Positions 23,245-27,653 of a stretch of 64,000 nucleotides of DNA are shown piece after piece; position 1 is the first letter of the stretch; every line of letters begins with the position of its first letter. The notes beneath the pieces were generated by a model, which searched no databases, was not told the origin of the DNA, and worked only from the letters and a program-made list of their open reading frames with translations. The stretch is from assembly GCF_056746865.1 (NCBI RefSeq), contig NZ_CM163382.1; one strand, given 5' to 3'. The translations under genes were made by a program, and so were the position numbers.

Positions 23245-24837
23245 CTATAACCCAGGCGCTTTCCATAACGACGTCGTCAGTCCATGATCAACCAGCCCCA
23301 GCTGATCCTGATAAACTGCCTGCCACTTATCCCGTGAATCCTGATAAAGTTCATGCTTTTCCGGGTCTGGTGTGTGCGTCCGTTCCCAGCGAACCAGGCG
23401 TTCTCCGGTTTCTGCCATTGATGAAAAAATTCCGGCACCGACGCCAGCTGCAATGGCACATCCTAATGCGGTGGCTTCTTTGACCACCGGAATATTGACG
23501 GGTAATCCCGAGACATCAGCGAGAATTTGACTCCATAATTTCCCTTTTGAACCTCCGCCTGCAAAGACTAACGATGAAGGATGAATATTCGAGAAATCAG
23601 CGATTTGTTGCAAATTACACGCTGATACAATCGCCGCATTTTCTTCCAGCGCACGGAACAACGTCGCTTTGTTACATTTATCCGGATCAATAGACAAATT
23701 AATAAAGGAAGGCGCAGCGTGATACCAGGTTTTAAAGCGCATTCTGTCGGAGAATATCGGCATTACGCCCCACGACCCAGGCGGCACCCGACTTGCCATC
23801 TCTTCCAGCAGCGTATAGGTGTCGATGCCTAAACGTTCGGCAATCAGTTTTTCTTCGGCACAGAAAGCATCGCGGAACCAGCGCATGGTGAGTCCGGTAA
23901 AAAAGCTTATAGATTCAGCTTGTACCATGCCAGGAATAACATGAGGATTAACGCGCACGTTCATTTCTGGGTCTGTCACCGGCGCGGCTAAGTTTACAAC
24001 TTGCTGCCAGAATGTGCCGCCAAGAACAGCGGTTTGTGCCGGACGCACAACGCCTAACCCCAGGCAACCAAGTTGCACGTCGCCTCCTCCAACGACCACC
24101 GGAGTGCCCGCCTTCAGACCGCAGAGTTCCGCCGCTTGTGAACTTACCACGCCCAGCAATGTGCCGGTTTCTTTGACAGGAGAAAGAATATCGGCCCGCA
24201 GTCCGGCCATATCCAGCAATGCAGGTTTCCAGTCACGGGTGGTTAGGTCAAGAAGTCCCGTGGTGCCAGCGTTAGAGGGATCCACCGCCAGTTCGCCGCT
24301 GAGCATATAGGCCAGCCAGTCGCTGATCATGGTGATGGTCGACGCCTGTCGGTAGATATCAGAACGATGGTGCGCCAGCCAAAGTAATCTGGGAATAGCG
24401 CTTAAAGCCAGCGTTTGTCCGGTGGCGCGATAAACTTCGTTTTCAAAGGTATTGTTGTGCAGTTCTTTAAGTTCGCTAACTTCGCGCGCCGCTCTGGCAT
24501 CCACATTGGCGCAGGCCCAGATCGGTGTTCCTTCATTGTTATATAAAACAATGCCTTCGCGCATCGAACATGCCGAAACGGCAGCGATATACTCCGGGGC
24601 TATGCCGGCGTTGTGCAGCGCCTGGCGCATACACTCACACGCCAGTTGCCAGTTTTTGTTGAGATCAAACTCCATAGAACCAGGAACGTCCGGTACTGCC
24701 AGGTGCCGCCACTCCGCCTGTCCCACTGCTATTTGATTGCCTTCCAGGTCGAATATCACAGCCCGAATACTTCCGGTGCCTGCATCCAGCGCCATCAGGT
24801 AGTACTTTGATTCTGAAGGGGTAAAGAGTCGAGCCAT
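23245..24837 (-). CDS. lsrK: autoinducer-2 kinase
   Basis: 530-aa ORF, FGGY-family carbohydrate kinase pattern; downstream of lsrR. Confidence 0.9.
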
Positions 24838-24915: not shown

Positions 24916-25869
24916 TTAACTACGTAAAATCGCCGCTGCAGTATCCTGATCGGTAACCAGTGCGTTGATATAACCGCCTTTCATTGCAGCGGCAATGGCT
25001 TCGGCTTTATTTTCTCCCCCTGCCACGCCAACCCGGACGGGAATAGTCTTCAGCGCGCTTAAAGGTAAGCCAATCAGTTCGTTATGTATTTTGATATCCG
25101 TGACAACGTCACCTTTTGCATCAAAAAAGTAGCCTAAAATGTCGCCAACAGCCCCTTTTCGACCAATCATTAACTGTTCGCCCTGGCTGATATAGCCGGA
25201 GCGAATGATTGTTGCGTCGTCTTGTTGACTCACAGCCCCAATGCCGACAATCGCCACATCCGCTGCTTGCGCGGCTAGCAGAACATCTTTGACGCAATTT
25301 TCATTTTTTAGCGTACGGGCAATGTCAGCGGAGGATGCCCGCAACGGAGCCGGAATAATATTCACACTGCACGCCGCGTTAAGCTGCCCGATACCCGTCA
25401 TATAAGAACCGACGCCACCGGAGAGCGTGACCAGGCGAATTTGCTGTGACGAAATAAAACCACTTAAGCGTTGCAGCGTATTCATGGTTGCCTCGCCAAA
25501 ACCAATCGCCAGCATCTGTTGTGGTTGAAGTAAACTCATCAACATATGCGCCGCGCCTATCCCTAGTCGCCCGCCGACATCAGCATCCGCAAGCCCTGGG
25601 ATCACCCGGACATGTTGCAGCGAAAACTGACGACGTAATTGTGTTTCATATTCCAGACAGCCTTCAAAGCGAGAATTAATCTGTACGCGAATAATGCCGG
25701 ATTGATGCCCTTTCTCCAGTAATCGCGACACTTTCAAACGGGTCAGGCCGAGACGATCGCTGATCTCACTCTGGGTCAGCCCGTCGTGGTAGTAAAACCA
25801 CGCAATCCGCGCGACCTGTTCTTCTTCACACATTCCCTGTTCTGAAATTACCGAATCGTTGATTGTCAT
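24916..25869 (-). CDS. lsrR: lsr operon repressor (SorC/DeoR-type)
   Basis: 317-aa ORF with N-terminal HTH and sugar-binding domain; divergent from lsrA. Confidence 0.9.
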
Positions 25870-25937
25870 AATTCATTCTTCACTTTGAACATACTTAAAT
25901 CTTTAATGCAATTGTTCAGTTCTTGCGCATTTATATC

Positions 25938-25953
25938 TGTGATGGCAACCACA
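25938..25953. promoter_or_regulatory. CRP-like site TGTGA-N6-CCACA in lsrR-lsrA intergenic region
   Basis: Read from sequence; close to CRP consensus TGTGA-N6-TCACA; lsr operon is known to be CRP-dependent. Confidence 0.4.
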
Positions 25954-26053
25954 GTTTGACTCTACGAGCATGAACAAACGCAACCGTGAAAATCAAAATA
26001 GCATAAATTGTGATCTATTCGTCGGAAATATGTGCAATGTCCACCTAAGGTTA

Positions 26054-26086
26054 TGAACAAATTAAAAGCAGAAATACATTTGTTCA
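26054..26086. promoter_or_regulatory. 9-bp inverted repeat TGAACAAAT-N15-ATTTGTTCA, candidate LsrR operator
   Basis: Perfect dyad about 30 bp upstream of lsrA ATG; a third TGAACAAA copy at 25971-25978. Confidence 0.4.
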
Positions 26087-26117
26087 AAACTCACCTGCAA
26101 AACTGAACGGGGGAAAT

Positions 26118-27653
26118 ATGCAAACGAGTGATACCCGCGCGTTACCGCTACTTTGCGCCCGCTCGGTTTATAAACAGTATTCAGGGGTTAATGTCCTGAA
26201 AGGCATCGATTTTACGTTGCATCAGGGGGAGGTCCACGCCCTGCTCGGCGGCAATGGTGCCGGTAAATCGACGTTAATGAAGATTATTGCCGGTATTACC
26301 CCTGCTGATAGCGGTACGCTGGAGATTGGGGGCAACAACTACACCAGATTAACGCCAGTTCATGCTCATCAGCTGGGTATTTATCTCGTTCCCCAGGAAC
26401 CGCTGCTTTTCCCAAGCCTGTCGATAAAAGAAAACATCTTGTTTGGGCTGGCAAAAAAACAGCTCTCCATGCAGAAAATGAAGAACTTGCTGGCGGCGCT
26501 GGGCTGCCAGTTTGATCTGCATAGTCTGGCAGGCTCACTGGATGTTGCCGATCGCCAAATGGTGGAAATCCTCCGCGGGCTGATGCGCGACTCGCGGATT
26601 CTGATCCTCGATGAACCTACCGCCTCGCTTACCCCCGCCGAAACCGAACGTTTGTTTCGTCGCTTGCAAGAGCTGCTTGCTACTGGCGTGGGTATTGTTT
26701 TTATCTCGCATAAGCTGCCGGAAATTCGCCAGATTGCCGATCGAATTAGCGTGATGCGCGACGGAACCATCGCCTTAAGCGGCAAAACCAGCGAACTGTC
26801 TACCGACGACATTATTCAGGCCATCACGCCAGCGCTACGGGAAAAATCGCTCTCTGCCAGCCAAAAATTATGGCTGGAATTACCTGGCAACCGCCCACAA
26901 CATGCCGCCGGAACGCAGGTGCTGACACTGGAAAATCTGACCGGCGAAGGTTTCAGGAATGTCAGCCTGACGCTCAATGCCGGAGAAATTCTGGGCCTGG
27001 CTGGGCTGGTGGGAGCCGGACGCACAGAACTGGCCGAGACGCTCTATGGTCTGCGTACTTTGCGTGGCGGACGCATTATGCTGAATGGTAAAGAGATCAA
27101 TAGATTATCCATCGGAGAACGTTTACTGCGCGGTCTGGTTTATCTGCCGGAAGATCGCCAGTCATCCGGACTGAATCTCGATGCTTCACTGGCGTGGAAC
27201 GTCTGCGCCCTCACTCATAACCTTCGTGGATTCTGGGCGAAAACCGCGAAAGATAATGCCACGCTGGAACGTTATCGTCGGGCGCTGAATATTAAATTTA
27301 ACCAACCAGAACAAGCTGCACGGACCTTATCCGGCGGCAACCAGCAAAAAATCCTGATTGCCAAATGCCTGGAAGCTTCGCCGCAAGTATTGATTGTCGA
27401 TGAGCCGACGCGCGGCGTGGATGTCTCGGCGCGTAATGATATCTACCAACTGTTGCGCAGCATCGCCGCACAGAATGTGGCTGTGCTGCTTATCTCCTCT
27501 GATCTCGAAGAGATCGAACTGATGGCAGATCGCGTGTATGTGATGCATCAGGGCGAAATTGCCCACTCTGCACTGACCGGGCGCGATATTAATGTCGAGA
27601 CCATTATGCGCGTTGCCTTCGGCGATAGTCAGCGTCAGGAGGCGTCATGCTGA
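26118..27653 (+). CDS. lsrA: AI-2 ABC transporter ATP-binding protein
   Basis: 511-aa ORF with duplicated ABC ATPase domains (Walker [10 protein letters not shown]). Confidence 0.9.

Follow-up and report, generated by a model that had tools for sequence, protein, structure and literature searches.

Which DNA element is read by the LsrR repressor between the divergent genes lsrR and lsrA, and how is this element placed relative to the sites of cAMP-CRP? We addressed this question in a 64,000-nucleotide stretch of DNA (NCBI RefSeq assembly GCF_056746865.1, contig NZ_CM163382.1; the whole stretch is referred to as the window, and all coordinates are counted from its first letter). Judging from its sequence, the window is Escherichia coli DNA and positions 25870–26117 are the lsrR–lsrA divergent control region. 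This 248-bp spacer corresponds exactly to the intergenic stretch between lsrR (24916–25869, minus strand), which encodes a SorC-family repressor of 317 residues, and lsrA (26118–27653, plus strand), the first gene of the autoinducer-2 (AI-2) ATP-binding cassette (ABC) transporter operon. Both genes are assigned from their open reading frames (ORFs) and from the annotation of matching E. coli genomes, in agreement with the identification of the locus in an initial annotation of this DNA. The general reading proposed there, namely that the spacer contains candidate CRP and LsrR contacts gating AI-2 uptake, also holds. We propose that the spacer is a bidirectional lsr switch built from LsrR-type operators and two cAMP-CRP sites, a reading to which we give a probability of about 0.8, the candidate operator being a 33-bp element, TGAACA-N21-TGTTCA. 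The lsr regulatory region is already known, and the operator grammar described here is a modest refinement of it.

A 33-bp inverted repeat in the lsrR–lsrA spacer

The initial annotation had pointed to three copies of an octamer, TGAACAAA, two of which form a 9-bp dyad just upstream of lsrA, and to a near-consensus CRP site. The three octamers are indeed present, at 25971–25978 (plus strand), 26054–26061 (plus strand) and 26079–26086 (minus strand), as is the dyad, whose arms TGAACAAAT (26054–26062) and ATTTGTTCA (26078–26086) can be extended to 13 nt with 92% complementarity. The number of occurrences is no argument by itself: the octamer is found six times in the window versus 3.67 expected, and 21 of 100 shuffles reach six, while the CRP pattern is found four times versus 2.12 expected, a value reached by 17 of 100 shuffles. 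Both counts, taken alone, are within the chance range and provide no evidence, so that the significance of the motifs has to be sought in their arrangement and conservation rather than in their frequency in the window.

At the level of the sequence, the TGAACAAA words are the arms of a 33-bp element, TGAACA-N21-TGTTCA. Just two perfect instances of this element exist in the 64 kb, both inside the lsrR–lsrA spacer, versus 0.0 perfect and 0.2 one-mismatch instances in shuffles of the window. The first is the lsrA-proximal operator candidate, O_A (TGAACAAATTAAAAGCAGAAATACATTTGTTCA, 26054–26086), which contains the dyad mentioned above. The second, O_R (TGAACATACTTAAATCTTTAATGCAATTGTTCA, 25886–25918), is the lsrR-proximal candidate and was absent from the initial site list; a repeat finder detects it as a 33-nt direct repeat of O_A, the two copies being 73% identical and 168 bp apart. 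Exactly at the middle position lies a decayed copy, O_M (25971–26003), the left arm of which, TGAACA, is intact whereas the right arm, ATAGCA, carries four mismatches. The third octamer, at 25971, is thus the surviving half of a decayed middle operator. Thus, the octamers noticed initially are real words, but the repeated unit is the 33-bp element. O_R, O_M and O_A are separated by steps of 83–85 bp, and the outer two by 168 bp, i.e. about 8 and about 16 helical turns, respectively.

Conservation of the element with lsrR

We aligned 15 LsrR orthologues and fetched 80 loci from species-representative genomes, 68 of which display the divergent lsrR–lsrA arrangement and were extracted; adding the window gives 69 spacers, and adding Salmonella gives 70, representing about 20 genera. 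The TGAACA-N21-TGTTCA element is present in all 70 spacers. When at most one mismatch is allowed, the 69 spacers without Salmonella contain 116 instances with an arm spacing of N21 and 13 with N20, the latter corresponding to the middle-position copy in Yersinia and relatives, and none with N17–19 or N22–25; 20 shuffles of the whole 69-spacer set, combined, yield about two matches at each of several spacings. O_A has at most one mismatch in 69 of the 70 spacers, always with N21, and the copy of X. kozodoii (L074) has two mismatches. O_A is also the highest-information block of the genus-level profile, and no other element of the spacer is as conserved as the dyad: in the profile of 19 genera, the conserved islands are solely AA.tGTGATC, a T-rich block, cTA...TT and O_A. 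Across 89 distinct operator copies, the arm sequence is invariant and no mismatch is accompanied by a compensatory change, which fits recognition of the DNA by a protein and argues against an RNA hairpin.

Additional copies lie upstream of O_A at fixed distances, 83 bp in 27 loci and 166–168 bp in 26 loci. The remote copy, O_R, is kept 166–168 bp from O_A in Escherichia, Citrobacter, Salmonella, Kluyvera, Pantoea, Rahnella and others, and the position 83 bp before O_A is occupied by a dyad with at most two mismatches in 27 loci, with just one mismatch in Salmonella. Altogether, Salmonella, Kluyvera, Superficieibacter, Serratia sp. H1w and Entomohabitans display three copies in 83-bp steps, Photorhabdus, Xenorhabdus and Morganella two copies 83 bp apart, and Escherichia, Citrobacter, Pantoea and Rahnella the two outer copies, O_R and O_A.

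The association of the element with its cognate regulator gene holds beyond the Enterobacterales spacers and reaches the Bacillus cereus group, and a Pasteurellaceae-type locus has an N22 variant. In the B. cereus-group locus (L086), where lsrR-lsrK is divergent from an ABC transporter and LsrR displays 40% identity, we found AGAACA-N21-TGTTCT. The Pasteurellaceae-type contig (L083; LsrR 57% identical), the cluster of which contains Haemophilus, Rodentibacter and Aggregatibacter LsrR, carries N22 versions of the element 83 bp apart. Note that the same contig also carries a near-perfect CRP site, TGTGAGATTGATCACT. Further homologues are found in other settings: a LsrR homologue with 45% identity lying beside lsrK and a DeoC-type aldolase gene (L084) is accompanied by TGATCA-type palindromes in place of the element, and a GC-rich, non-lsr locus (L085) is devoid of the dyad.

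Comparison with the DeoR operator

LsrR belongs to the SorC/DeoR subfamily, and the LsrR protein encoded in the window is near-identical to that of PDB entries 4L5I and 4GO1. Its structural homologue DeoR from Bacillus subtilis (PDB codes: 8R7Y and 7BHY) has a conserved helix-turn-helix (HTH) recognition helix: residues T43-R44-L-K-V-S48-R49-L-L of LsrR align with S38-R39-P-T-V-S43-R44-L-L of DeoR, and R44, S48 and R49 of LsrR are invariant among the aligned orthologues. The DeoR operator, ATTGAACAAAATTTCAATTACCAATTTACATATGTTCAA, is bound over its full length by a tetramer, with TTGAACA being read base-specifically (PMC11229326).

The operator of dra-nupC-pdp in these DeoR structures resembles the lsr element in its outer arms, TGAACA...TGTTCA, and in overlapping the promoter. 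The inverted TGAACA-type outer half-sites, of the kind read by a homeodomain-like HTH, are perfect in both O_A and O_R. The DeoR operator also contains weaker inner half-sites and is occupied by a dimer of dimers (PMC11229326), which by analogy suggests that the lsr element might likewise accommodate a tetramer. Inner TTAAA/TTTAA half-sites are discernible in O_R and weak in O_A, within 33 bp versus 39 bp for DeoR, and the interior of the symmetrised operator profile shows only a T-rich then an A-rich stretch. The layout of the two regions differs as well, since DeoR uses a single asymmetric operator at −60 to −21, whereas the lsr region contains two to three symmetric operators 83–168 bp apart, interspersed with CRP sites. 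Given that the 33-bp element travels with lsrR across phyla, that LsrR and DeoR are homologous, that their operators share the outer arms and that their recognition helices align, TGAACA-N21-TGTTCA should be an LsrR operator, and it is the type of site expected for such a repressor.

CRP sites and predicted promoters

The near-consensus CRP site of the initial annotation, TGTGATGGCAACCACA (25938–25953), has a single mismatch to TGTGA-N6-TCACA (9/10). Its placement is strictly conserved: in all of the 27 spacers that have O_R inside the extracted sequence, the distance between TGTGA (at most one mismatch, exact in 25) and O_R is exactly 19 nt. The right half is CCACA-like (at most two mismatches) in 25/27 loci, and the N6 spacer varies freely. 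cAMP-CRP is reported to be essential for lsr expression; CRP sites near lsrA are broadly conserved in Enterobacteriaceae according to the literature, and CRP binding in the lsrR–lsrA spacer has been described (Wang et al. 2005), with sites labelled CRPI and CRPII (PMC5137460). From the order of the elements in the spacer, TGTGATGGCAACCACA is most probably CRPII (PMC5137460).

The second site, CRPI (TGTGATCTATTCGTCG, 26009–26024), was missing from the initial list; it is the one best placed for lsrA activation. It matches the core at 6 of 10 positions: the left half and its flank (aatTGTGATCTA) are perfect, the right half is poor. In an ungapped comparison anchored on O_A, TGTGA (at most one mismatch) is found at −45 to −41 from O_A in 54/70 loci, and a TAnnnT hexamer at −8 to −3 from O_A in the same proportion, 54/70. 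In 12 Yersinia loci, both CRPI and the −10-like hexamer are shifted by 1 nt, with CRPI being further from O_A and TAnnnT at −9.

In the window, the hexamer reads TAAGGT (26046–26051, plus strand), and it begins 29.5 bp from the CRPI centre (26016.5). This distance suggests a class II geometry, with CRP at −41.5, TAAGGT as the predicted lsrA −10 and transcription predicted to start around 26057–26059; for a start near 26058, O_A would cover positions from about −4 to +29. The same 29.5-bp rule applied on the other side connects the CRPII centre (25945.5) with AACAAT (25916→25911), the candidate lsrR −10, which suggests another class II arrangement with an lsrR start near 25904 and O_R covering about −14 to +19. 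ATTGTT is found at the AACAAT position of O_R in 27/27 loci. No mapped start site for lsrA or lsrR turned up in the literature searched.

Published promoter mutations can be examined in the light of this predicted geometry. Two promoter-up changes, TGTGCAAT to TGTACAAT and TGTGCAAT to TGTGTAAT, have been attributed to a putative CytR site described as very close to the CRPI box (PMC5137460), and CRPI at 26009–26024 does adjoin TGTGCAAT. The substitutions, G>A at 26034 and C>T at 26035, fall in TGCAAT (26033–26038, plus strand), which we read as being turned into TACAAT or TGTAAT, both nearer to TATAAT. A −10 hexamer created or strengthened upstream of O_A would account for the raised promoter strength and the persistence of LsrR control without invoking CytR.

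Between CRPI and the predicted −10, at −30 to −23 from O_A (26024–26031 in the window, and the same offset in L005–L079), most genera share a conserved T-rich block, ggTTTTaT; the Escherichia versions are GGAAATAT (window) or GGAATTAT (L002–L004). It might bend the DNA beside CRP or act as a −35 substitute.

Relation to the published LsrR sites

The literature describes LsrR protection at both promoter regions and release by phospho-AI-2 (Xue 2009, as cited in PMC5137460 and in PMC8487509). The map of Hauk et al. 2016 covers the same locus, and its order (p-lsrR boxes, CRPII, CRPI, p-lsrA boxes; PMC5137460) and approximate positions agree with ours. On the lsrR side, the p-lsrR box is placed at −237 to −197 from the lsrA ATG, i.e. 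25881–25921 (PMC5137460), an interval that contains O_R. Both motifs quoted for this box (PMC5137460 and PMC8487509) lie inside O_R: the 9-bp motif AAGATTTAA (TTAAATCTT on the plus strand) at 25895–25903 on the minus strand, which corresponds to inner positions 10–18 of O_R and to its small TTAAA/TTTAA inverted repeat, and the 6-bp motif AACAAT at 25911–25916 on the minus strand, which overlaps the O_R right arm. The published lsrR-side site is thus O_R. The 9-bp motif itself is exact in only 4 of the 27 O_R copies, all from Escherichia.

On the lsrA side, the p-lsrA-box is quoted in PMC8487509 as AAAACT plus AAAACTGAA, defined by mutational work and located at 26086–26091 and 26099–26107 on the plus strand. 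This box does not coincide with the dyad of the initial annotation, which it adjoins, so that the ground for refutation named there, published sites at other positions, applies in part, whereas the lsrR-side motifs fall in an operator that the annotation had not listed. The same paper describes LsrR sites as AT-rich and without high sequence homology. The literature thus depicts short AT-rich motifs, lying just downstream of the dyad on the lsrA side, whereas the comparative data point to a 33-bp unit in two to three phased copies. The lsrA-side footprint probably spans O_A and its flank, with two A-rich words having been chosen inside it.

Different papers define the LsrR site in conflicting ways, and the literature is not settled. 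No paper of the open literature that we searched connects LsrR with the TGAACA/TGTTCA dyad, and searches for an earlier mention of the dyad or for a RegPrecise link returned primer sequences or nothing. The operator grammar and its conservation do not match the motif definitions of the accessible literature; they may exist in closed papers or in curated regulon databases.

In the same region, we noted that the sequence preceding the lsrA ATG, TGAACGGGGG (26104–26113), is conserved, being (T)GAACGGAGG in Citrobacter, Serratia sp. H1w and Mangrovibacter. It looks like an additional GAAC half-site fused to the Shine-Dalgarno sequence and overlaps the published motif AAAACTGAA.

A proposed bidirectional switch and its alternatives

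In the switch that we propose, each 33-bp operator would accommodate one LsrR tetramer (dimer of dimers), by analogy with DeoR, each dimer reading a strong outer arm together with a weak, AT-rich half-site of the interior. cAMP-CRP would activate lsrA from CRPI and lsrR from CRPII; an LsrR tetramer on O_A would block the lsrA start, and LsrR on O_R would block the lsrR −10 and start, resulting in autorepression. Phospho-AI-2 would then release LsrR, as reported in the literature. Such a combination of CRP activation and LsrR repression implies that both arms would require cAMP-CRP, i.e. the lack of a preferred sugar, and the absence of LsrR, i.e. AI-2 having been imported and phosphorylated.

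Activator-plus-repressor sugar promoters with auxiliary operators are exemplified by lac (CRP, O1/O2/O3) and by class II CRP promoters such as galP1. The lsr region resembles promoters of this type by the combination of cAMP-CRP activation with an inducer-released repressor, by operators at integral turns and by an operator over the start. It differs from them in being divergent and autoregulated, in relying on a SorC-family repressor and in responding to a phosphorylated signal inducer (P-AI-2).

Spacings of about 8 and about 16 helical turns would allow cooperative or looped repression. In this respect, 12 of 14 published mutants with raised expression in the lsrA direction change positions 25904–25910 (TAATGCA), which belong to the inner part of O_R, some 150 bp from the lsrA promoter; these mutations hint at operator–operator cooperation, with which they are consistent but which they do not prove. 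A more ambitious scheme can be put forward tentatively, although we consider it rather less likely than its negation: the real LsrR element would be the 33-bp operator, from Enterobacterales to the B. cereus group, and not the AT-rich boxes in use since 2009, and its two to three copies, phased at 83–85 bp, would flank the two CRP sites, with LsrR tetramers and CRP being assembled into a single looped or wrapped repression complex that controls both promoters.

Several points weigh against the reading of the spacer as an LsrR–CRP switch. The lsrA and lsrR starts, the −10 hexamers and the class II −41.5 placements are predictions, and a consensus scan of 25800–26200 found no sigma-70 promoter and no terminator-like site, although the lack of a sigma-70 match is uninformative, being common among activator-dependent promoters. 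CRPI has a poor right half throughout, with 3–5 mismatches out of 5 in 68/70 loci. The arm spacing of the 39-bp DeoR operator is N24, versus N21 for the 33-bp lsr element. The up-mutations in O_R could instead create a rightward promoter. Recent LsrR papers propose unrelated motifs, namely NNNTTTTNN repeats and TCCG/GGAAAA. Finally, the published lsrA-side motifs (26086–26107) adjoin O_A and share with it base 26086 alone.

This last point leads to the alternative that survives best, according to which LsrR would contact AAAACT/AAAACTGAA at the lsrA promoter, the dyad being the site of another factor or a structural element. It agrees with the mutational definition of the p-lsrA-box and the AT-rich sites described in PMC8487509, and with the later footprints on cysP and cysN, which report non-TGAACA motifs. 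Yet AAAACT adjoins O_A in just 3 of the 70 loci and AAAACTGAA is found in 2 of them, all from Escherichia, whereas the dyad is present in every spacer and accompanies lsrR as far as Bacillus. Besides, the first base of AAAACT belongs to the dyad arm, so that a mutation of AAAACT would harm O_A too. The lsrR-side published motifs sit inside the equivalent dyad, O_R, and the homologue DeoR reads TTGAACA. Altogether, we regard this alternative as improbable.

We give still less credit to an RNA-level role of the 9-bp inverted repeat, in which a 5′ hairpin of the lsrA leader would affect mRNA stability or translation. The 41-nt O_A stretch does fold at −7.0 kcal/mol, with a z-score of −3.4 relative to shuffles, but the O_R copy folds no better than its shuffles (z = −1.2), and the invariance of the arms together with the uncompensated mismatches is at odds with a conserved stem. 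Moreover, copies are found on both sides of the divergent promoters and at the untranscribed middle position, the predicted lsrA start falls inside the left arm, and an Rfam scan of 25700–26300 gave no match. A structured RNA element, either a leader hairpin or an attenuator, was therefore rejected on account of the lack of covariation, of an Rfam match and of a terminator-like site. As to chance matches in an AT-rich intergenic region, for which the octamer and CRP-pattern counts lying inside the shuffle range could be invoked, this explanation deserves virtually no weight and is refuted by the comparative data, since the composite dyad, with 0.0 expected per 64 kb, occurs twice within 248 bp, and since the spacing and offsets, unlike the intervening sequence, are exactly conserved over about 20 genera.

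Gene context and strain variation

The lsrR–lsrA spacer lies within a run of lsr genes: besides lsrR and lsrA, lsrK (23245–24837, minus strand) is identified by its ORF and by annotation in matching genomes, and lsrC and lsrD, which follow in the lsrA operon and start at 27647 and 28675, respectively, by their ORFs. The 801 bp surrounding the spacer are 100% identical to E. coli strain 118UI. At least 80% of this 801-bp stretch is found in 4,170 of 5,426 complete E. coli genomes, always with lsrR and lsrA as the annotation, and 4,171 of the 5,426 carry the whole spacer. The K-12 spacer differs from that of the window at 2 of 248 positions (25894 and 25927).

A few E. coli genomes retain just the final ~48 bp of the spacer (equivalent to 26070–26117 of the window). 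In E. coli MB06101 (L087, 2440–2560), the deletion joins a truncated autotransporter gene to the middle of O_A; a deletion of this type takes out lsrK, lsrR, both CRP sites and the predicted −10, leaving lsrACD... without its control region.

A 9-nt direct repeat, GGAAATATG, is found at 26024–26032 and 26112–26120. Its second copy comprises the lsrA ribosome-binding region and the ATG; an 8-codon ORF would begin at the first copy, ahead of the predicted start. This repeat is probably due to chance.

Implications

The lsr switch also serves as a promoter in synthetic biology. A conserved 33-bp operator with fixed phasing constitutes a precise mutable target, both for the engineering of this promoter and for tests of claimed LsrR regulon members. 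If the 33-bp operator were the real LsrR element, as in the more tentative scheme above, the LsrR regulons inferred from AT-rich matches (ahpCF, katG, cysP, cysN) would need to be re-tested. For the bacteria themselves, the lsr switch sets when enteric species clear the shared AI-2 signal from their surroundings.

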